This document shows positions 4,678 through 32,464 of a stretch of 64,000 nucleotides of DNA, piece by piece. Location of the stretch: contig CAVSBO010000003.1 of the NCBI GenBank assembly GCA_963726195.1, forward strand, positions 640,001 through 704,000, written 5' to 3'. A program made the translations under genes and the position numbers. The notes under the pieces were generated by a model. That model searched no databases and had not been told where the DNA came from. It worked only from the letters and a program-made list of their open reading frames with translations. Position 1 is the first letter of the stretch. Each line of letters opens with the position of its first letter. This stretch comes from Candidatus Thorarchaeota archaeon. Lineage in GTDB: Archaea > Asgardarchaeota > Thorarchaeia > Thorarchaeales > Thorarchaeaceae.

Positions 4678-6390
4678 CTACGCGCTAGGTACTGACTGCA
4701 TCCAAGTCATGCACTCAGGATCCTCTGGGAACGCATCCTCTTCGCGTACCAGTCCCCGGGGAGAGCGAATGCCCGTTATGGGATATAGTGCTAATCCATG
4801 ATTCAGAGCGGCCTCAGCTGCTCTCCGTCCCCAGCTTCCTGGTGCAGATACGACAGCGCAGGCAATTTGCTCGCTTGCCAGTATTGTTGCTTCAAGACAG
4901 CTATCACGAGCTGACGTCACGCAGAGCGTCTGACTCGCCGAGCAGTACCAAATCCGGCCTTATGCCCAAATGGTTGAAATCTGGTAGGAGTAGCACATTC
5001 CCAGACTGCACCAATGACACCATCCGATGCATCGAACCTGTGAGACTATTCGCCAACACCTTTAGTTTGCCTTCCATCAGTCGTTCAAGAACGGCTTCCT
5101 CCCCAGAGTCGAGAACTTGCTTGCTTGAACTCAAGTCTAGACTCGTAGGTGACAGGCGTCTCTGACTTGATGCCTATGGATTCCAGCGCCCAATGCAAGA
5201 GATCTCGACCCTGCGATAGCACGCCACCTGGCTTGGGCACTATGTCTTCGATGTTCAAGGAGTATTCTAGTGAAGTTAGAGGCGACGAGGTATCCTCAGT
5301 GACTGCGAGATACTTGGGTTTGAGTCCATTAAGGTAGCTGACAGTTAACCATGAGCTATCAGAATCAATAGGTCCTTCCCCGAGAACTAGAGAAAGCACC
5401 TTCCCTGTCGGGAGAGTGTTGCAGACTGCGCGAGGAGCTGAGGTGAGCTGATTCAAGCAGATGTCTCCTTTCGTGTAGCTTTCTCGGATTGGTTAGACTC
5501 TCGCAGAACCCTCGTATTGAGTGATAGTCGTCGGTTCCAAGTGGCACTTCGTAACCATCATGGATCACTCTTAGAGCAGCAGTGCATCTGTCAATCGGAA
5601 GGTCGATTGGAAAGCTCTCGAGCAGAGACAGGACTCGCTGAAAGCCTCTATCTCCATAGCACTCCGAGTGTTTGACGAAATGGTTGACAATCGGGCGAAT
5701 GTTTGCGTCTGGGGTGTTTTTTCTCCACGTATCAAGCCATTGCTCTTTCAAAGGGCTCTTCAGAAGTGAATGGGCGATCCCATTCGCTGCACATTGACCA
5801 AGCACCTGACCCGCGCGGTCTGTGCTCAGAAGCAGAAGGAAGCCTGCACGTAATACTGCACCTTCGGCCCAACTCGCGCTCGCCACAGACTCCTCGAAAA
5901 GAAGAGTACCGTCCTTCTCAATTTGCATTCCAAAAATCGGAGTACCTTGTCCGAGTTTCTCTTTGGTCACAAATATGTTGGGAAACTTGGGTTCGGGCCG
6001 TCCAAGTGCTCTTGCAATCTTTCGCATGGCTCGTGACAGTGCAGACCTGAATTCCTCCGTGGCCTCCATTCTGAGTTCCTCAACGGTGGGTTCTCTAGGT
6101 TTCTCGAACTTTGCTAGAAGTCGGGCCGCATTTCTGATCATGTCATATGTGGAGTTTTCGACGTTCTCAGCTCCTAGCATGACGCCAGCAACACTGAAGA
6201 AGTACAGCCTGACACGGTCCTGATTAACAACTGCGACCAAGAACATTATTCCACGAAGCTGTTTGAAGTACTTCCTTAGAGCTGATTCCTTTACACGGAG
6301 CACGTCGACTGACAAAGCACCAGCTTCTAGGAACTGCCTCTCTCCAAAGGCGGCGATTTCCTTTGGTACCTCTCTGGGAATTCGGGACAT
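4678..6390 (-). CDS. hypothetical protein, probably one gene broken into several frames
   Basis: Overlapping minus-strand ORFs 5365-6390, 5085-5456, 4904-5134 and 4678-4920 with protein-like composition; no family recognised. Confidence 0.5.
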
Positions 6391-20124: not shown

Positions 20125-21147
20125 TTGGAACCAAAGACAGCTGCTGCTAATGCCCTTGAGGCGGTGCTGGAAGCGAGAACAGGAGAATCTCTGTTAGTTG
20201 TAACAGATGATGTGAGAAGCGATGTTGGCAGAGCCTTCGCGCAAGGGGCGCTCGAGCTCGGTCTATGGACAAGAATGGTTGTGCTGCCTACTCAGGAGAA
20301 CACATTCAGATCGGCCATCCCTGAGCATCTCACAGAAATGATCAACTCAGCAAACCAGCCAGACATATTCGTCAACACGCTACGAGGGCCATCTCAGGAG
20401 ACCCCCTTCAGAATCAAGATTATCAACCTTGAAACAAGAAAGGGTCGTTCCAGATTGGGGCACTGCCCGGGTATCACAATGGACATGCTCACGGATGGAG
20501 CATTGGCAATGACCAAGGAGCAACATGCCAAGATGCAAGGAGAGGCCCGTAACCTCCTCGCTCTTCTACAGGATGTGGCCTCAGTTCGTGTGACTGCACC
20601 AGCCGGTTCGGATTTCACCCTCAGCGTGAAGGGTCGTACTTGGTTCTCGGATACGTATGTAGACTGGAAGACCATGAAATGGATGAACCTTCCCACGGGC
20701 GAAGTTCTAGTTGGTCCCGTGGAGACCGCAATGCAGGGAACGCTCGTCTGCGACCTAGCATATGGAGGAGGCGCTGGAGCGCTCAAGAAACCAGTCAGAA
20801 TCGAAGTGAAGAACGGACGCGTCATGAAACTCGACACTGACGACAAGGAAGTGCTCAAGGCGATAGAGCAGACACAAGCGACTGATGAGATGGCCAAGCA
20901 CGTAGGCGAATTCGCAATCGGTCTCAATCCAAAAGCGAGGATTGTGAAGGAGTTTCTTGAGTCAGAGAAGATTGGCAATGCGATCCATGTAGCGTTCGGT
21001 AACAACATGGACTATCCGGGTGTGGTGGCGAACAACTCTGCCACACATCAGGACTTCCTTGTTGGCAAGCCGACAGTGACTATCACTTATGCGGATAGCC
21101 GATCAAGAGTCGTAATGGAGAACGGTGCTCTTCGGACCAAAGAGTGA
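20125..21147 (+). CDS. M29-like (thermophilic metallo-) aminopeptidase
   Basis: NLPTGEV, GEFAIGLNP, ESEK, IHVAFGNN, SATHQD. Confidence 0.88.
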   Translation: MEPKTAAANALEAVLEARTGESLLVVTDDVRSDVGRAFAQGALELGLWTRMVVLPTQENTFRSAIPEHLTEMINSANQPDIFVNTLRGPSQETPFRIKIINLETRKGRSRLGHCPGITMDMLTDGALAMTKEQHAKMQGEARNLLALLQDVASVRVTAPAGSDFTLSVKGRTWFSDTYVDWKTMKWMNLPTGEVLVGPVETAMQGTLVCDLAYGGGAGALKKPVRIEVKNGRVMKLDTDDKEVLKAIEQTQATDEMAKHVGEFAIGLNPKARIVKEFLESEKIGNAIHVAFGNNMDYPGVVANNSATHQDFLVGKPTVTITYADSRSRVVMENGALRTKE

Positions 21148-21571: not shown

Positions 21572-22859
21572 CTAGAGCCAATCAAAAGCCTCATTCCAAG
21601 TGATGCTGGACCCTGAGAATGGATTCAGGTAGAGGACCTTGAAGAAATCTGATACGAATCCTTTCTCCGCTGCCTTATTGAATGTCGGCATGACGAAGTC
21701 CGTCTTCCCAACGTGGTATGTGAACACGTATGGTGCCCAAATATTGACACGGCCATCGTCTGTCTTGGGCTTGAAGAAGTCGGTTGTCGCTCTGGCGGAG
21801 TCTGGCGGCCTCAAAGCTCTTTCTGCGATATACGGGGTCACCTCTTCGACTCCCATTCCTTTGTCATTCATCATGATTGCAGCGTTGATGGAGACCATTC
21901 GTCTCAGTGAACTTCAGCTCTTCGAATGCCCTTGCGGTCGGACTCTCGTCAGCTATTCTCAAGAACTCCTTTGCAGAATCAGCCGAACCTTCAGATATCA
22001 CACTGCGACCTGTGTGAAGTGGAACGACACTCAGCTCAAGATACCGATTCTTGAGGTAGGCGCGCTCACGAAATAGATTATTGACGTGGTGTTCGTATTC
22101 ATGATAGATCACCGATAGTGACACTTCGCGGTTCATTGGATGGTCGACGTTGAACTCATTCATCGACTTGAAATCGCCAAGATAGTAGTTGTAGCCGCCC
22201 CAGGGCTTGTTCGTTACAGCCTTGTAGCGCACTCCGTTGTCGCGTATGCGTCCTCCGATTTTGGAGAAGACTCTCTCTTTGAACAGGCGGCCGACCTCGG
22301 AAGCCTTGTCTTGAAGCTCGCCCTCAATCAGATTCCTCAGAGGCTCGCCTCTGAGCTCTCCGGTCGTCATGAAGCGGTCGGCTCTTTCCCTCAAGTCCGC
22401 TCCCGGAAAACCAATGAAGGCCTCATCGGCACGTTGAATCTGCCGGTCGATGACACTCTCAGGGTAGGCCTTCATGTCGATGTTGAAGAGGCGTTTGACG
22501 AGCTGACCGTAGGAGATGTCAGCACCGCTAAGCCACTCTACTAGCGTTTGCAGGGAGTGTATTTCGCCGAGCAGATACTCTGTCCTCAATTGGTTTCGAA
22601 TGGTGCCCTTGATGTTGTCAATCAGAGGACCAATATCCTCCAAGATTGACTCTGGTTCCGTACTCCCAGTCTGCTTTTCCGGGGCCAGACTAGAAGGACC
22701 GAAGTAGGCGTCGACAATGCTGACGCCAGTGAGCCTTTCGCTGAAGTTGCCTATTCTACCACATGTCCGTACGTACTGCTCGACTGTTTTCACGCTCGAT
22801 GCCTCACTTGATGGTGAAATGGCATACCAGGATGTAGTTGTTTTAGACGGCTCTGCCAT
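21572..22859 (-). CDS. DUF885-like putative zinc metallopeptidase (frameshift near 21905)
   Basis: HEYEHH plus downstream EGSA in ORF 21864-22859; C-terminus WAPYVFTYHVG in ORF 21572-21898. Confidence 0.6.
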
Positions 22860-24152: not shown

Positions 24153-24908
24153 TCACATTCGAAGGGTGGCCCGTCCGAACACGCGTTCCGAGCCATCCTT
24201 CTGGCGAAGTGTGAAAGTCGCCTCATTCTTTGATATCGTGATTTGTGACATCACCTGAGTTGCTGCTCCTCTGAGTCTTCGAGAGAGCAGAGTGCCAGTG
24301 TTGTATAGGACCATCTCATTCAGTCGCCAGAACCATGGAACGTGGCGATGACCATTCAGGACAAGGGAACACTTAGTTTGATCGAGAACGCCTAGAACAT
24401 CTCCTGCGTCTTCCACAACGTTATGCTCACGTCCTGTAAACGGAACAGCCACGAGATGATGGTGAACAGCAAAGACTCGAACCTTGTTATGAGCCTTGCC
24501 GAAGAAGTCAGTGATGAAGGGATACTGCGCCCGCCCGACATGGCCTGCGTCATTGTCTGGCTCTGCGCTGTCCGCGGCATAGATGGCTATGTTCTCATCT
24601 TCGTATGTCTTGAAGCGGGGACCAAACAGGTGCTCGAAGTGAGCAGACCCGTAGTTGCGCTCATCGTGGTTTCCGGGTATGATGACCTTGGGAATGGAAA
24701 CGTCTCCAATGACCTCTGCAAACGCATCATATTCCTCCTTGAGACCCTCAGTTGTAAGGTCGCCTGTCACAAGCAACATTGGGGAAACTACGTCTCTTGC
24801 CCGCTTCTCGACAAAATCGATGATCTGCTTGAAGTCATCAATGCTCACTCCCTCCTCTCCAATGTGGACATCACTCATGTGAAACAATGTCATTGACTTG
24901 TTTGCCAT
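24153..24908 (-). CDS. calcineurin-like metallophosphoesterase (Icc/CpdA-like)
   Basis: SDVH, TGDLT, PGNHD, HHH, GHRH motifs; its ATG directly follows the TAG of the upstream gene (TAGATG). Confidence 0.92.
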   Translation of the reverse strand: MANKSMTLFHMSDVHIGEEGVSIDDFKQIIDFVEKRARDVVSPMLLVTGDLTTEGLKEEYDAFAEVIGDVSIPKVIIPGNHDERNYGSAHFEHLFGPRFKTYEDENIAIYAADSAEPDNDAGHVGRAQYPFITDFFGKAHNKVRVFAVHHHLVAVPFTGREHNVVEDAGDVLGVLDQTKCSLVLNGHRHVPWFWRLNEMVLYNTGTLLSRRLRGAATQVMSQITISKNEATFTLRQKDGSERVFGRATLRM

Positions 24909-27038
24909 CTATCGGAAACCTCCGGAAACGCATGCGGAGTGACAAGCTGAGTGGCATGCTGAGTGGCACACACATGCGGAGTGGCAAGCTGAATGGCAAG
25001 CACTGTGACACGCATCGTGCGACACACATGCACTGTGACACGCATCGTGCGAAACGCATCGACTAGTCCCCTCGAGGATCGGTTTGAGAGGCTCTGTGAT
25101 TATCTTGCCGACATTATCAACTACTTTCCCTATCGTGGACGCAACATTCGTGATTATCTGAGAGGTCGCCGTTGCCACGTCACCCATGGTCCGCCCGATA
25201 TCAGATATCGCATGCCCAGTTGCCGTCGATAGGTCTCCGAACCAGGTCGGAATCTGTGGCGGCGCTGTAGCACCCACCGGGCGAGAGAACGAATCGTGGA
25301 TGTACGTGTCGTGATGTGGGTTCATGTAGAGCCAATACCAAGCCCAGCCGTGATAGGACCCAGTGAAGTAGTAGTCTGCGCGGGCATCGACCGTGGGATT
25401 GGACTGTAGCTCCTGCCAAGCTCCCTCAGCGAGTTTGTCATGCTCCGCCTTCGTGGCCTCGAAATCGGCCTGCCAAGACTTCTTCTGTACTTCATCGGCC
25501 AGACGCTCAATGAGATCGTCAACCTTCTCGGGCGCAAACTCATCGTCTACGACTGCGTCGACAAGCATCTGTTCATAGTAAGTCAGTTCCTCGAGTTCAA
25601 TTCCCGTGACTGAGACTTTCAGAGGATCTACAGAGAGTACCCTCAATGCGCCCTTCTTGACACACGACATCAGTATCATGGACACTATTTTCTGCCTGCT
25701 TTCATTTACGAAGAAGGCTGACTCAACTGGATCGAGTTCAGCGACTGTTCCGGGCTTGCCGAGAGTCTGGATTGCTATCTCAGGTTTCTTGTATACTCCC
25801 GTGGTTTCGTCAGGCTCCCACTTCGCTCCATAGTGCGAGGTAGTCTTCTTGTAACCATAGTACGCAATCCCTAGGAATGCGACGACTCCGAACCCAAGAA
25901 CGAGCGCGCTCGGAGGAATCAGTGGCGGGATGTACTCTGCAACATAGACGTTCACTGTGAATACCAGCCACTGCGACACATTTAGGCTGGATGACGATAC
26001 TTGGAACGTCACTGGCAAGATTGCCGGCACATTCTCAGGCACGAATTCATACGTCAGGAGTTGGCTTTGTCCTCCGACCATAGTACCGATGTATGTTGAT
26101 GCCTCACCGGATGTCATGGTTAGATTCGCTGGGACTGCTACGCTGACAGTCACATCATGCAGGTCGGCGTCACCGATGTTGAAGATGCTCAGGTCAACGT
26201 TGAATGGTGTGCTGGCCTGTGCGTTAATGTTGGGCACAACATTGTATCCCAGCGCACCGGGTTGCACGTAGGCCGCATAGAATGACCAGTTCGTATAGTG
26301 GAATACTCTCAGATGCTCCTGCGTGTAGGCGGGGTTAGCAGTCAGACTGACACTGAAGTTCCTGGGCGAAGCAGAAGGATTAGATGGGTATGCCAGAAGA
26401 CTGTATGAATCGAAGCTCCGTTCACTGCTTCCACTCCAAATCCCCTGTCGAGAGTCCACAACATACCCGGAGTAATTTGCACCCTGTTGAGTTATCCCTC
26501 CTTCCCCTGTTATCCACGAAGGCTGCATCACGATTGGGTAAATCACACGGATGTTCTCCATGTCAACCCTCTGAGACCACTGGGCTGGTGCCCAGTTGAA
26601 CACGCCCATTTCAAGCGTCTGTTGGACTATCCGACTAGTGCTGAAATACCCGAACACAACAGTGACTGTGTTTCCACTCTGAGTCCGTGGAGTCCAGTCC
26701 AAGCCATATCCGCCCGATTTGGTCGTGACAATGAGACTGTAGGTGTTGCCGCCCATCTGGACATACGCCCGGCTGGGATCATACACGTTCGACTCCTGTA
26801 TGCCAAGCAAATCAAAGCCCCCAAGCGAGCCGCTGGTCACTGTGAAATTCATCCAGTAGGTGACATTGATGCGCCCATTCGGCAGAACAACCACGTCAAC
26901 GAGTACGCCATCAATATTCACAACAGGGCTCTGACTTGGGACAGCTGCCGTGCTGAAAAGTGGTGACAGGAATAGTGCGGAGAGGACTACGACTACGGCG
27001 AGCAAAGACCTATGACCCGAAAACCCCTTTCTCTTCAT
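24909..27038 (-). CDS. DUF2207-like single-pass membrane protein with a C-terminal Cys/His-rich (CHSA)n tail; putative radical-SAM modification target
   Basis: Signal peptide from MKRKGF, extracellular beta domains, TM at about aa 397-417 of the ORF, cytoplasmic LDPVESAFF/KKGAL/LTYYEQMLV region, then the tail CVSHDACHSACVSHDACHSACHSACHSACVCHSACHSACHSACVSGGFR. Confidence 0.8.
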   Translation of the reverse strand: MKRKGFSGHRSLLAVVVVLSALFLSPLFSTAAVPSQSPVVNIDGVLVDVVVLPNGRINVTYWMNFTVTSGSLGGFDLLGIQESNVYDPSRAYVQMGGNTYSLIVTTKSGGYGLDWTPRTQSGNTVTVVFGYFSTSRIVQQTLEMGVFNWAPAQWSQRVDMENIRVIYPIVMQPSWITGEGGITQQGANYSGYVVDSRQGIWSGSSERSFDSYSLLAYPSNPSASPRNFSVSLTANPAYTQEHLRVFHYTNWSFYAAYVQPGALGYNVVPNINAQASTPFNVDLSIFNIGDADLHDVTVSVAVPANLTMTSGEASTYIGTMVGGQSQLLTYEFVPENVPAILPVTFQVSSSSLNVSQWLVFTVNVYVAEYIPPLIPPSALVLGFGVVAFLGIAYYGYKKTTSHYGAKWEPDETTGVYKKPEIAIQTLGKPGTVAELDPVESAFFVNESRQKIVSMILMSCVKKGALRVLSVDPLKVSVTGIELEELTYYEQMLVDAVVDDEFAPEKVDDLIERLADEVQKKSWQADFEATKAEHDKLAEGAWQELQSNPTVDARADYYFTGSYHGWAWYWLYMNPHHDTYIHDSFSRPVGATAPPQIPTWFGDLSTATGHAISDIGRTMGDVATATSQIITNVASTIGKVVDNVGKIITEPLKPILEGTSRCVSHDACHSACVSHDACHSACHSACHSACVCHSACHSACHSACVSGGFR
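24912..25058 (-). repeat. coding tandem repeat: seven CHSA units plus two CVSHDA units
   Basis: 12-nt units TGY CAY (AGT/TCA/TCC) GCW, plus a duplication with 30-nt period (TCGCACGATGCGTGTCACAGTGC twice). Confidence 0.95.
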
Positions 27039-27132
27039 TCGACGCACACCGCCCGTGCAAGAGGAATTGGCCAGAGCAAGTGTATCATTTTCTTCCATGA
27101 CCCATTCAGCAACAGTCTGCGTTACTAATCTC

Positions 27133-27528
27133 TCATTGGCCCTTTCTGGCCCGATGCATTTCTGCCTGTGCCGTAGTTAGCTCTGACAAGTCAGCTTTCG
27201 CTGCAGCCCATTCTCCCAGTTCGGGAAATGCGTCAACCATCCCGCTCCAGACAACGTGATATGCTTTCTTCAGTAGAACTGCGGCGTCTGAGTCCTTTCC
27301 AACATACTCGAAGAAGCATTTCACCATGACCGGTGTCTGATCTGAAACGTTGGCCGGTATCTCTGTGCCAAAGCCCGCGAAAGCAACATCGAGCTCGTTT
27401 AGAACATCCAATCTCTCTCGTAGACCTGCTGCGAGAATGGGTAGGTCCATGTCATAAGCACTGAAATGCATGACCAGTTTCTTGCCACTTATTGTGCCGT
27501 ATGGCAGTTTTGTTTCGCTCGAACTCAT
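27133..27528 (-). CDS. hypothetical protein
   Basis: 131-aa ORF, co-oriented immediately upstream of the Cys/His-tail gene. Confidence 0.7.
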   Translation of the reverse strand: MSSSETKLPYGTISGKKLVMHFSAYDMDLPILAAGLRERLDVLNELDVAFAGFGTEIPANVSDQTPVMVKCFFEYVGKDSDAAVLLKKAYHVVWSGMVDAFPELGEWAAAKADLSELTTAQAEMHRARKGQ

Positions 27529-27648
27529 AGCGCGATGACTCCAACATTATGCTGGTTAACAGTCAGGTCTACGAGTTGATAAGCCTTTCAGGTCATGGTT
27601 GCTCGTTCAGAAGCATTAAGAGGATTCCCGCTCCTTCCGAGGACAGAC

Positions 27649-29070
27649 ATGGAAGCCCAAACCTACACCTATGCTCTCGAGGATCTCTCGTGGGTTCCCA
27701 AATTCATGGATGAAGTAAAGGACTTCTTTTTTGCGAGACCTGAGGACAACCTACTGATTCTCAGGCCCAACAAGACCATGCACCTCAACGAAAGTGCCAT
27801 GACTATGTTGAGGATGCTTCTAGATGGAAAAAACCCAGAACACGTTGTCAATCACTTTGTGACACACTTCGGTGCAGACAGACAGGTCGTTTTGAACGAC
27901 CTTGCCGCCTTTGTCGAGGACCTCCGAAGAATGACAATCGGTGATCAGAACATACTTGCTTACAAGACCGCAAAAATCATCCCGTTTGGCTCAGCAGAGA
28001 TAAGATACCCTGTCCTTGGTGAGATTGCACTCACCTATCGATGCAACAACAAGTGCAAATTCTGCTACGCATACTCTCCATATCGCGAATCGAAGGAGAT
28101 GTCCACGGATGAAGTCGAGCGCATCATAGACATAATTGTGAGAGACGCTCATGTTCCCAGTCTTTCGTTCACGGGAGGGGAACCCACTCTTCGCGATGAT
28201 CTCTTCGAACTGATATCTTACGGTCGCAAGAGAGGACTACGAATGAACCTCATAACCAACGGCAGAAAGTGCGCGGAGAGTTCATTTGTCAATCGACTTG
28301 TCGAAGCCGGGCTCAACAGCGCCCAAGTTTCAATCGAGGGCCCAAACGCTCGCGTTCATGATTCGATAGCGGCATCGGAGGGCGCTTTTGACCAGACAGT
28401 GAGAGGCATAAAGAACCTCAAGAAGAGCGGCATCTACACTCACTGCAACTCGACCATATGCAAGATGAATGCTGATTCTCTGATGGAACTCGTCGACTTC
28501 CATGCGGATGAACTCGGCCTGACCTATTTCAGCATGAATATGGTAATCTACACAGGCACGGCGGCAAAACTGCGCGACGAATTGATGATATCCTACTCGG
28601 AGATTGGAGATATCGTGAGGCGCGTGAAGCATCGCGCGAACAAGAAAGGATTGCAGTTCGTCTGGTATGCTCCGACACCCGTTTGTCTGTTCAATCCTAT
28701 CGCCCATGGACTTGGGGCCAAGAGTTGTGCATGCTGTGATGGTCTGCTCTCTGTCGACCCGGAAGGTGGCCTCTTGCCGTGTTCGAGCTTCAGTGAGCCC
28801 GTGGGTAACCTGCTCAACGACGGATTCGAAAAGGTGTGGTACTCAAGAGCAGCCCGATTTTGGCGGGCCAAGGATTTCGCACCCGAAGGCTGCAAAGCCT
28901 GCGGCCACTTTTCATATTGTACGGCCGCATGCCCTCTCTACTGGGATGTTTTCGGATATGAGGAGATCAAACCGTTCTGGCCGGAAAAGACCAAAATCGG
29001 ACAGGCGATAGATGATGCGAGACTTGGTCTGAGAAGAAAGACAAGAGGAAGCCAGCATGGTATAACTTAG
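27649..29070 (+). CDS. radical SAM/SPASM peptide maturase with an N-terminal PqqD/RRE domain
   Basis: LNESAMTMLRMLLDGKNPEHVVNHFVTHFGADRQVVLNDLAAFVEDL (RRE); CNNKCKFC; TGGEP; SPASM CACC...PC...GNL...CKAC...CTAACP. Confidence 0.92.
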   Translation: MEAQTYTYALEDLSWVPKFMDEVKDFFFARPEDNLLILRPNKTMHLNESAMTMLRMLLDGKNPEHVVNHFVTHFGADRQVVLNDLAAFVEDLRRMTIGDQNILAYKTAKIIPFGSAEIRYPVLGEIALTYRCNNKCKFCYAYSPYRESKEMSTDEVERIIDIIVRDAHVPSLSFTGGEPTLRDDLFELISYGRKRGLRMNLITNGRKCAESSFVNRLVEAGLNSAQVSIEGPNARVHDSIAASEGAFDQTVRGIKNLKKSGIYTHCNSTICKMNADSLMELVDFHADELGLTYFSMNMVIYTGTAAKLRDELMISYSEIGDIVRRVKHRANKKGLQFVWYAPTPVCLFNPIAHGLGAKSCACCDGLLSVDPEGGLLPCSSFSEPVGNLLNDGFEKVWYSRAARFWRAKDFAPEGCKACGHFSYCTAACPLYWDVFGYEEIKPFWPEKTKIGQAIDDARLGLRRKTRGSQHGIT

Positions 29071-29083
29071 CTCGCCGAGTTTC

Positions 29084-29804
29084 CTACTTGACACCGACCG
29101 TGTTCACTATGACTCGTCCGCAATATGGGCAGGTCTCTTCCTCACCAGGCAAGACAGGTTTTGCCAGCTTACCACCGCAGAATGGACAGGCTGTTACGGC
29201 TTTGGGGAGCTGTGATACGGCCTCCGATGTATATACGACCCTCGAGTTCTCATCAACGACGCCCCGAAACTTGCCCTCCTTTGACAGCTCTCTCAGGGCC
29301 TCGATAATCTGGGTATCATTGGCCTCCGTAACGGCCGATACCTGGTCGAAAGTCATTCTTCTCTGGGCTAGAAGAAGGTGAAGAAGGCTCTCCTTGAGCG
29401 TGACCGCACGAGGGCTGACGATTTCCCAGGATCGTTGATCGAGATACACCAATGGAAGCTGGCGCCGAGCAAGCTTCTCAGCTGCTTCGGAAACAGCCTG
29501 GGTGTCAGCCTTCAATTCTCTTGCAGCTGCATCGACGCTTATCCTACCCTGTTTCTGAACGAGTGGAATCAACCGAGCGGACACATCACTAACACGACCT
29601 TCCCGCATACCCCTGGACACCAACCAGAGCCCTATTGCCAACTCAGGGAGTCCAAGTATTCCCCAAGTCTATCATACCGGAAACCAGCAAGGTTCCCAAT
29701 TCCCCCGGCACACTCACTGTGGCAGTATACACGAGATAGGCCATAGCTGCAGCAAGTATCACCAAGATGATACCTAGTAGCTGCACAAACCTTGGGTTCA
29801 CCAT
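29084..29804 (-). CDS. membrane protein with two winged-helix/PCI-like domains and a C-terminal zinc ribbon (frameshift in a G4 run near 29662)
   Basis: MVNPRFVQLLGII... TM segments; ISVDAAAREL; ELSKEGKFRGVVDENS; CPFC...CPYC. Confidence 0.7.
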
Positions 29805-30353: not shown

Positions 30354-30753
30354 TGGCAACTGGCCGATAGCACGACAGGTCAACAGCCTTAGAGTGAACA
30401 ATGTCTCTCGCCTAATTAGTGCGGAATAGGCGAGTTTGGGCGCCGCGGCACTCTGAACAATCCTTGAGCCACGTTTTCCTTTCGATTTGGGAACTCACTA
30501 CCTGACCGTGTCATCTCCAGTCAACTTGCGGTGGTTTCTCAGATTGTGCGGGGTGTACGATTCAAGGAACAGCCAAAGAATCTGCTCCGGGTCTCTTTTG
30601 ATTCCGTAGGACTCAAAGGACTTCGCGACATCGAATACGACAGAAGCATTTATCTCTGGATAGTCTCGCGGGTCTGCAGTTTCCGTCTCGCAATTCCGAG
30701 GCCGACAACGAGACTGATGAACTGATGTTGTGCACAGAAAGAGACGAGAAAAG

Positions 30754-32464
30754 ATGCCAAAGCCATCCAATCCACTAATTGTGCAGTCTGATAAGTCCGT
30801 TCTGCTCGAGGTTGATAATCCTCTATACGAGGAGGTTAGAGATTCTCTGGCGCGGTTTGCAGAACTGGTCAAAAGCCCAGAGTACGTTCATACATACAGG
30901 ATAACACCTCTCAGCCTCTGGAATGCAGCTGCAGCAGGGATGAAACCGGATGCAGTCGTACAGGCTTTGGAACAGTACGCCAAGTATCCGATTCCGGGCA
31001 ACATCGCACGCGAGATTCTCGACTACATGAGCAGGTATGGCCAGTTGTCGCTCCTGAAAGAAGGAGACAGGCTCATCCTATCGTGTGCAACCGAAGACCT
31101 TGCTGAAGAGATATGGGCCAATACCAAGGTCAGGGCACTTCTGCTGGACAGACTGGACAACACTAGGATGCTCGTAGATCCGGCCCAGAGAGGTTTCGTG
31201 AAACAGATTCTCCTCGAGTTCGGTCATCCAGTCGATGATATTGCAGGATACGTCAAGGGTGAGGAACTCCGCTTCGAACTGCGTTCTACTACTCTCGGAG
31301 GAAGACCATTCAAGCTGAAGAGCATACCAACAGGATGCAGCGGCTACGTTCTACGCAGGTGGAGGGATAACCGGAGGCTCGGGCGTGGTCGTGCTTCCAT
31401 GCGGTTCTGGAAAGACAATGGTAGGCATGGGCATCATGCAGGAACTCCAAACATCCACTCTGATACTATGTCCCAACGTCGTTGCGGTTCGTCAATGGAT
31501 AACAGAACTGCTCGACAAGACGACTCTCAAACCAGAGCAACTAGGTGAATACACAGGCGATAACAAAAACGTGCGTCCTATCACTGTCGCAACTTATCAG
31601 ATACTAACTTGGCGCAGGTCCAAGGAGGAAGAGTTCGAGCATTTCAAAATCTTCGACGCCAGAAAGTGGGGCCTAATCATATACGATGAGGTGCATCTCC
31701 TTCCAGCTCCGGTATTCAGAGTTACTGCATCCATACAAGCGACAAGAAGACTGGGTCTAACCGCAACCCTTGTAAGAGAAGACGAAAGGGAAGAGGACGT
31801 TTTCAGTCTCATTGGACCGAAGAGGTACGATGTGCCATGGAAGCAACTTGAGGATCAAGGCTGGATAGCGACCGCGGTCTGCTACGAGATTCGCGTCGAG
31901 TTACCTGACAACCTGAAGCGTAAGTATGCTATCGAAGAGGATAGGAGGAAGTACAGGATTGCGGCAGAAAACCCCGTCAAGCTGGAAGTGCTAAGCAAGA
32001 TAGTGGCTCACCACCAAAAGGACAACATCCTCATCATCGGTATGTACTTGGACCAGCTGAAGATTATTGCCGATGAACTCGGAGCCCCGCTGATTACAGG
32101 AAAGACCGGGAATGATGAGCGTCAGGAACTCTATGATGAGTTCCGCCACGGGCGAATCAAGACGTTGGTCGTGTCAAAGGTCGCCAATTTCGCTCTCGAC
32201 CTTCCGGATGCGAACGTCGCCATTCAGGTTTCTGGAACTTTCGGTTCCCGTCAGGAGGAGGCTCAGAGACTTGGCCGCATATTGAGACCAAAGGTCGATG
32301 GTAGTCTTGCCCGATTCTACTCGATTGTGACCAAGGACACTCGTGACATGGATTTCGGAGCAAAGAGACAACTGTTCCTTACTGAGCAAGGATATCAGTA
32401 CGTCATAGCCTCAGCAGAGGAGGAAGTCTGGAAGCAACCGCCAGAATCTCTCTGCACAGTGTAG
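30754..32464 (+). CDS. xpb: XPB/Rad25/ERCC3-type DNA helicase with an N-terminal helicase-associated domain (frameshift near 31318)
   Basis: PLIVQSDKSVLLE, YRITPLSLWNA; LRAYQ; LPCGSGKT; DEVH; GLTATLVRED; QEEAQRLGRILR. Confidence 0.93.

Follow-up and report, generated by a model that had tools for sequence, protein, structure and literature searches.

The described systems closest to the one considered here are CrpC/CrpA of Methanococcus voltae (TIGR04463; PMC13692751) and the TIGR04222 membrane proteins linked to multinuclear non-haem iron-dependent enzymes (MNIO, DUF692) (PMC12452194), although by its sequence the present system is a member of neither family. In the first, a radical S-adenosylmethionine (SAM) enzyme with a SPASM domain and a recognition element (RRE) of the kind found with peptides that are made on ribosomes and modified after translation (RiPPs) adjoins, and crosslinks cysteines in, a large protein with C-terminal Cys repeats; a folded domain aids recognition and the product remains a protein. 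In the second, a C-terminal Cys-rich tail has been proposed as the substrate of an adjoining RiPP-type enzyme. Here we analyse a 64,000-nucleotide stretch of Thorarchaeota DNA (the window), in which a plus-strand gene for an RRE–radical SAM–SPASM enzyme lies divergent from a minus-strand run of three genes, encoding a hypothetical protein, a membrane protein that ends in a Cys/His tail and a metallophosphoesterase. Coordinates and strands confirm this arrangement as given in the initial annotation, which had proposed that the enzyme acts on the tail.

The proposed substrate differs from CrpA, a 29-kDa protein with an N-terminal RRE site and CxxD/Q-type motifs, in its type I membrane topology and in the internal position of the predicted site. 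The MNIO-linked proteins belong with another enzyme class, have tails placed in the periplasm and are only loosely linked to the enzyme. QhpD, also an RRE–radical SAM enzyme, puts thioethers into a protein subunit, but its substrate QhpC, a small subunit of an enzyme, has its leader at the N-terminus and Asp/Glu as acceptors (PMC13692751). Protein substrates of such enzymes thus have precedent in CrpA and QhpC. The sactisynthase systems StsB/StsA and SkfB (PMC10288494, PMC6231123) share a W/YxxP recognition sequence, and their CxCxC core recalls the alternating Cys–Ala tails described below; unlike the present case, they involve short free precursors that form Cys–Gly hairpins, and the Sts RRE is separate. 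The CXXX-repeat systems (TIGR04114, TIGR04115, TIGR04117) likewise have Cys at every fourth residue, but in short targets. A literature search, with most subscription papers outside its reach, gave no description of the system and, for the tail motifs, only DNA-primer matches among the papers listed; no curated model for it was found.

Linkage of the enzyme and the tailed membrane protein

The two genes at the centre of the system are the following.
27595..29070, plus strand: RRE–radical SAM–SPASM enzyme (Pfam PqqD, Radical_SAM and SPASM)
24909..27038, minus strand: type I membrane protein of 709 aa, the proposed substrate (open reading frame map, hydropathy)

Since the enzyme is co-inherited with a membrane protein that bears a docking motif and a near-invariant Cys/His tail, it probably crosslinks the cytoplasmic tail of the whole protein, which would stay intact. 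The linkage of the genes in both directions, the failure to find a free precursor in the genome, the positive-inside topology, the RRE motif and the complex model all support action on the tail.

With the enzyme as the starting point, a tailed gene was present in nearly all radical SAM loci of Thorarchaeota and Anaerolineae that had room for it. With the tail as the starting point, the same RRE–radical SAM/SPASM clade was found in 35/35 metagenome loci flanked on each side by 1.5 kb or more and in 16/16 strong Chloroflexota matches from a sample of 201 Chloroflexota genomes. The co-occurrence of Cys-tailed homologues with this clade, proposed as a check in the initial annotation, extends to other genomes in both directions. 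Within the window's family (37 genomes), both genes are present in 27 and neither in nine, and one (G030) has a tail fragment alone, at a contig edge, so that presence and absence agree in 36/37. These are counts, not statistics, related genomes not being independent. Another genome, G057, was rejected as a lone-enzyme case because both genes run off contig ends.

The pair is kept in archaea and bacteria despite changes in gene order, strand and all other neighbours. In Thorarchaeota the two genes are divergent with a gene for a 131-aa protein between them; in Anaerolineae the tailed gene, with a nearly identical tail, lies directly upstream of the enzyme on the same strand. Over 55 loci, among them relatives that are not independent, pairwise identities of enzyme and membrane protein covary (Spearman 0.76, against 0.23 for the best permutation). 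The enzyme profile has matches at E<=1e-60 in at least 2132 protein clusters, part of which were checked for the partner gene.

In apparently full-length homologues the tail consists either of period-4 CHxA repeats or of alternating Cys–Ala (CACA) repeats ending in GGG, and hybrids occur. The enzymes beside CACA tails form a separate branch in a quick tree, which has long branches, is unrooted and was used only to show this branch, and they differ at two active-site positions (T246/Q397 versus S/S; 7 CACA enzymes aligned). One hybrid tail (L224:5001-6764, P0015) has CHxA repeats followed by a CACA ending, and the nearby enzyme has the SS-type active-site loop. In G037 two enzyme copies (L238:2-1249 and 4786-6174) flank a single CACA-tailed gene.

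Architecture of the membrane protein

The membrane protein comprises the following parts, all on the minus strand.
25932..26942, minus strand: extracellular part, an M1-aminopeptidase-N/ribophorin-I-like beta domain (DUF2207 N-terminal type) and an immunoglobulin/CARDB-like domain (AlphaFold2, structure comparison)
25851..25931, minus strand: single transmembrane helix with basic residues C-terminal of it (hydropathy)
25761..25799, minus strand: predicted RRE recognition strand with YKKPEI (motif conservation, complex model)
25095..25739, minus strand: folded cytoplasmic domain, weakly matching DUF2207_C, TIGR04222 and GOLPH3 (AlphaFold2, structure comparison)
24912..25058, minus strand: Cys/His tail of 49 aa with CHxA repeats, the proposed core (sequence, conservation)

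The protein has 709 aa if read from the ATG at 27038, longer starts being possible at 27047 and 27098, and its gene is present once in the window's genome, which is 88.9% complete. Hydropathy reveals two hydrophobic stretches, a signal-like N-terminal one and a single transmembrane helix; 181/194 homologues have exactly one such helix. Basic residues follow this helix (mean K+R in homologues 3.8 after it versus 1.3 before), which by the positive-inside rule suggests that the C-terminus is inside. The charge bias supports the cytoplasmic location of the tail put forward in the initial annotation.

Pfam and NCBIfam searches with the membrane protein returned no match. The extracellular part is modelled by AlphaFold2 with a pLDDT score (predicted local distance difference test) of 96 and resembles the yeast oligosaccharyltransferase chain 6c26_1 (VIA Z 15.7, root-mean-square deviation 3.3, 186 aligned residues), ERAP1 (Z 12.7) and CARDB 3idu (Z 10.5). 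The likeness to ribophorin I is that of a fold common to M1 aminopeptidases and carries no functional information. Among close strains this domain is the most variable part of the protein (window 25938-26645), while the tail is nearly constant.

The cytoplasmic part is modelled as a folded domain and long helices, followed by a low-confidence tail drawn as helical. Among predicted structures, unnamed clusters from Chloroflexota and Bathyarchaeota come nearest to the folded domain, followed by DUF2207_C (atlas TM 0.53, with predicted models on both sides); Foldseek gave no match at E<=0.001. GOLPH3/Vps74 ranked first in two programs (GOLPH3 3kn1, VIA Z 5.6, root-mean-square deviation 4.4, 153 aligned); we set aside homology to GOLPH3 and lipid binding because this Z lies within the noise range stated for the tool. 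The profiles of DUF2207 (PF09972/PF20990) do not match the window protein and reach 17.8-21.4 bits, below threshold, in homologues; TIGR04222, with a cut-off of 43 bits, has no match at the locus and scores 16-21 bits (E 2e-4 to 5e-3) in homologues. The label 'DUF2207-like' of the initial annotation therefore holds as a resemblance, based on the predicted fold and these sub-threshold matches, but not as membership of the Pfam family.

The composition reported for the tail is correct: the last 49 aa contain 11 Cys and nine His and end in GGFR, and there is one further Cys elsewhere in the protein. The tails in 36 Thorarchaeota match that of the window at 99.4% of amino acids and 71% of nucleotides, with 1155 synonymous and 11 non-synonymous codon differences. 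On this sequence evidence the repeat is not a product of chance; the tail is under extreme purifying selection as a peptide. No CHxAC or CACAC repeats occur in other open reading frames of the 88.9% complete genome and, in keeping with the initial annotation, no separate short precursor was found in it. The tail has no match at E<=1 to TIGR04114, the CXXX target repeat against which scoring had been suggested, nor is there one genome-wide; two homologue tails graze TIGR04117 at E 0.03-0.04. Cys number per tail varies from 6 to 15. Cys is preceded by Ala in 88% of cases in CHxA tails and 65% in CACA tails, and is followed by His in 71% of cases in CHxA tails, CACA tails being almost free of His; Cys and the preceding Ala are thus the elements common to both tail types.

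A predicted docking site for the RRE

Just after the transmembrane helix, 200/207 homologues, of the one tail type or the other, carry a [Y/W]xxPx[hydrophobic] motif, whose background frequency is 0.0006 per residue; the Pro is present in 205/207. In the window protein it is the YKKPEI strand, about 20 residues past the helix. In homologues the motif precedes the first tail Cys by 180-270 residues (median 238), with the folded domain between. Lasso-peptide RREs recognize the same motif (PMC13381572), and StsC binds WxxP (PMC12710340).

A complex model of the RRE and the membrane protein scored 0.82 (best control 0.00), a mark reached by 58/80 solved complexes and 2/110 mismatched pairs; contact agreement between runs is 28% or more, and the partner pLDDT is at least 70. 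Confident contacts join RRE residues 62-68 and 102-109 and the linker 118-134 to the YKKPEI strand, centred on the invariant Pro. The juxtamembrane YxxPxI strand is accordingly the predicted RRE recognition site, about 240 aa upstream of the tail. The initial annotation had called for the RRE to be modelled against the segment preceding the tail; the RRE does dock on the membrane protein in the model, but at this distant site rather than at that segment. Covariation of the Y/W position with RRE residues gave no information, since a single clade is marked by W and numerous unrelated columns follow it.

With its motif and predicted interface, the membrane protein shares with RRE-dependent RiPP precursors a putative recognition sequence upstream of the proposed core. 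It does not have their other feature, that of a short free precursor with leader removal, being a 709-aa membrane protein with no conserved peptidase neighbour.

The radical SAM enzyme and its likely chemistry

Three features of the enzyme bear on the chemistry.
27757..27930, plus strand: PqqD-like RRE domain (PF05402, residues 55-112), most of the predicted interface
28042..28065, plus strand: CxxxCxxC SAM-cluster motif, C150/C154/C157 (invariant in 126 paired enzymes)
28684..28965, plus strand: SPASM region with linker C364, then C378, C396, C433, C436, C442 and C446, and Glu457 at the place of the expected last Cys (alignment)

The enzyme has 491 aa from the first ATG and 473 from Met19 (27649), the probable start judging from the closest homologues, which are 472-480 aa long. 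Its nearest relatives are from Thorarchaeota (68-86% identity) and then Anaerolineae (45-51%). PF05402 scores 33.6 bits against a cut-off of 23.4, and both PF04055 (Radical_SAM) and PF13186 (SPASM) are above cut-off; together with the invariant cysteines, this bears out the description of a radical SAM enzyme with an N-terminal PqqD-like RRE and CxxxCxxC. The 'full SPASM Cys set' of that description has to be withdrawn. The canonical last Cys, after CxxCx5Cx3C, is missing, no Cys lying beyond C446 in the window enzyme and in 94/119 CHxA enzymes; position 457 is Glu or Asp in 112/119, and the canonical seven-Cys motif is thus absent from the window enzyme. The linker Cys near 364 is present in all CHxA enzymes aligned (n=119). 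With seven conserved Cys for eight iron sites, one site would be open or bound by a carboxylate.

The suggested scoring against maturase models placed the enzyme in none of them: no NCBIfam maturase model reached its cut-off among the best 25, and the scores were 55.8 bits for TIGR04463 (CrpC family; cut-off 525), 33 bits for TIGR04115 (CXXX-repeat maturase; cut-off 350) and 98 for NF045574 (cut-off 625).

Six positions of catalytic proximity, taken from PMC10288494 and mapped by motif landmarks, are occupied by Y158, T193, I220, S246, S397 and S398. Four of the six equal those of the sactisynthase StsB (Y113, T147, I174, S199, then K and L) and one of the six those of the ranthisynthase CteB (F, F, T, S, H, Q) (PMC10288494). 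The profile, being closer to StsB than to CteB, leans towards S–C-alpha thioethers. If the tail is modified, Cys thioether crosslinks, by the active-site profile of the S–C-alpha type, would be the most likely chemistry, a preference that we hold with some reserve. The Ala that precedes each Cys is the first candidate acceptor.

Proposed mechanism and alternative explanations

Judging from its sequence, the membrane protein would go into the membrane in such a way that ~310 C-terminal residues face the cytoplasm. The RRE is predicted to take the conserved YxxPxI strand into its own beta sheet, as with lasso leaders, and the intervening folded domain and helices may span the distance to the flexible tail as a spacer, presenting the tail to the active site. 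By analogy with the family, a 5′-deoxyadenosyl radical would abstract hydrogen near the tail cysteines, giving several crosslinks at −2 Da each. The product would be a receptor-shaped membrane protein whose cytoplasmic tail is stapled and which acts with a small two-helix partner. Metal binding or metal/redox-linked signalling may be offered as a use for the modified tail, but this is a guess and a doubtful one. On balance we favour the wider picture of a system widespread in archaea and bacteria, whose radical SAM enzyme would bind an intact type I membrane protein at an internal lasso-type motif next to the membrane and install a ladder of crosslinks in a tail 180-270 residues away, beyond a folded domain, two enzyme branches being tuned to two tail chemistries.

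Several points weigh against crosslinking of the tail by this enzyme, or against its thioether form. The tail is not among the confident contacts of the complex model, whose score may owe to likeness to solved RRE–lasso-leader structures, so that it would indicate likeness and not binding. A more distant genome, G047 (89% complete), has a CACA-clade enzyme, and the tailed gene was not found in that genome. The last two proximity residues are S,S instead of the K,L of StsB. In SuiB a linker Cys completes the auxiliary cluster AuxI and the clusters are fully ligated, while in CteB AuxI is open for a substrate Cys (PMC6231123); by analogy the conserved Cys364 could fill AuxI as in SuiB. Finally, 5/7 CACA enzymes have eight candidate Cys.

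The SuiB-like pattern of Cys364 is also an argument for the alternative that survives best, a variant of tail modification in which the same pair performs another chemistry, such as His C–C or C–N crosslinks, Ala epimerization or Cys oxidation. It would moreover suit the His that follows most Cys of CHxA tails (71%) and the variation of active-site residues with tail type. CACA tails, however, are nearly His-free yet served by a related enzyme, with Cys and the preceding Ala common to both; the proximity profile equals that of StsB at 4/6 positions, and SkfB, with a conserved fourth Cys, still has an open site (PMC6231123). Within tail modification this variant claims a sizeable minority share; taken over all explanations it is rather unlikely.

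Less probable by a clear step is that the tail is an unmodified metal or Fe–S module, the RRE-docked enzyme acting on another target or helping to build a cofactor on the tail. The 11 Cys and nine His would be good ligands, the partner protein carries a zinc ribbon, the low-confidence AlphaFold2 tail is helical and the predicted docking is far from it. A fixed metal site would nevertheless hardly show a repeat number varying between 6 and 15 Cys and a His-free Cys–Ala version, the enzyme's branch and its active site track the tail type, and RREs with such a motif deliver substrate (PMC13381572, PMC12710340).

A classical RiPP, in which the modified tail is cleaved and released as a small product, is a little more improbable still. 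The leader-like motif and core-like tail, the Gly/Ser-rich linker before many CACA tails and an M29 aminopeptidase in the window (20125-21147) would fit such a pathway. The aminopeptidase, however, lies near 9/39 Thorarchaeota loci and is missing from the rest, no peptidase and no exporter or transporter is among the neighbour families of highest conservation, the large domains on either side of the membrane are conserved and well folded, and no conserved cleavage motif is apparent upstream of the tail. The release of a peptide by proteolysis, raised in the initial annotation, thus finds no support in the conserved neighbours. Incidental synteny, to which the lone enzyme of G047 and the local gene order largely common to Thorarchaeota might point, is hardly credible and largely refuted by the two-way linkage counts, the pair persisting through changes of gene order, strand and neighbours in archaea and bacteria.

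Neighbouring genes

Three further genes lie beside the pair.
27133..27528, minus strand: hypothetical protein of 131 aa, present in 39/39 Thorarchaeota loci
24153..24908, minus strand: metallophosphoesterase (Pfam match)
29084..29804, minus strand: partner with two transmembrane helices, winged helix and zinc ribbon, frame broken (comparison with other loci)

The 131-aa protein occurs in only two loci outside Thorarchaeota; a search for its family found none, with only atlas matches under 0.9. The metallophosphoesterase, found near 18/39 Thorarchaeota loci and none elsewhere, was rejected as a core part and is for this reason regarded as a lineage-limited neighbour. A small two-helix zinc-ribbon gene is found with the pair in Thorarchaeota, in Anaerolineae and at many CACA-type loci. 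In the window its frame is broken by one extra base near 29668, without which 239 aa are open; contigs from two runs of one study, from close strains, lack this base, which by sequence comparison is probably an assembly error. An XPB-like helicase in two overlapping frames (window 30730-32464) probably reflects a further assembly indel error. A gene at 21572-22859 is split into 331 and 108 aa and resembles, by eye, proteins of ~406 aa encoded close to the system in 28/39 Thorarchaeota loci.

In 31 Thorarchaeota loci (for example L017:4683-5852) a pyridoxal-phosphate-dependent alanine-racemase/D-serine-dehydratase-like gene usually stands between enzyme and zinc-ribbon gene; it is absent there in the window. 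The corresponding place in Anaerolineae (for example L062:8928-10226) is taken in 25/25 loci by a gene for a ~400-aa coiled-coil-like protein. Other bacterial CHxA loci have, in 46/56 cases, a gene for a different membrane protein of ~330 aa (for example L115:3520-4476); it mostly follows the enzyme gene directly, and its product, for which Pfam gives no match, has a conserved C-terminal region YPYxY...RQ...GYHT. Downstream of CACA-branch enzymes there is often a class I methyltransferase gene (L111:7900-8535, L235:4777-5535, L236:7132-7848, L237:4276-5019, L195), possibly for a second tailoring step; the lone enzyme of G047 (L236:5740-7086) adjoins one of them. A probable PAP2 gene lies near a CACA-branch enzyme in two cases.

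Implications

The mining of RRE–radical SAM systems relies on short precursor genes, and one study discarded those above 600 bp as false positives (PMC10288494); the large-substrate class described here would escape such filters. The predicted recognition strand and the proposed core, both soluble, are now located. If the proposal is correct, it would offer an initial point of entry to DUF2207/TIGR04222-like proteins and perhaps an enzyme able to staple Cys-repeat tails on folded proteins. RiPP logic would then serve to modify a receptor-like membrane protein after translation, perhaps through a new linkage (Cys–Ala or His-based), and modification of the tail, if true, would represent a new protein modification common to Asgard archaea and anaerobic bacteria.

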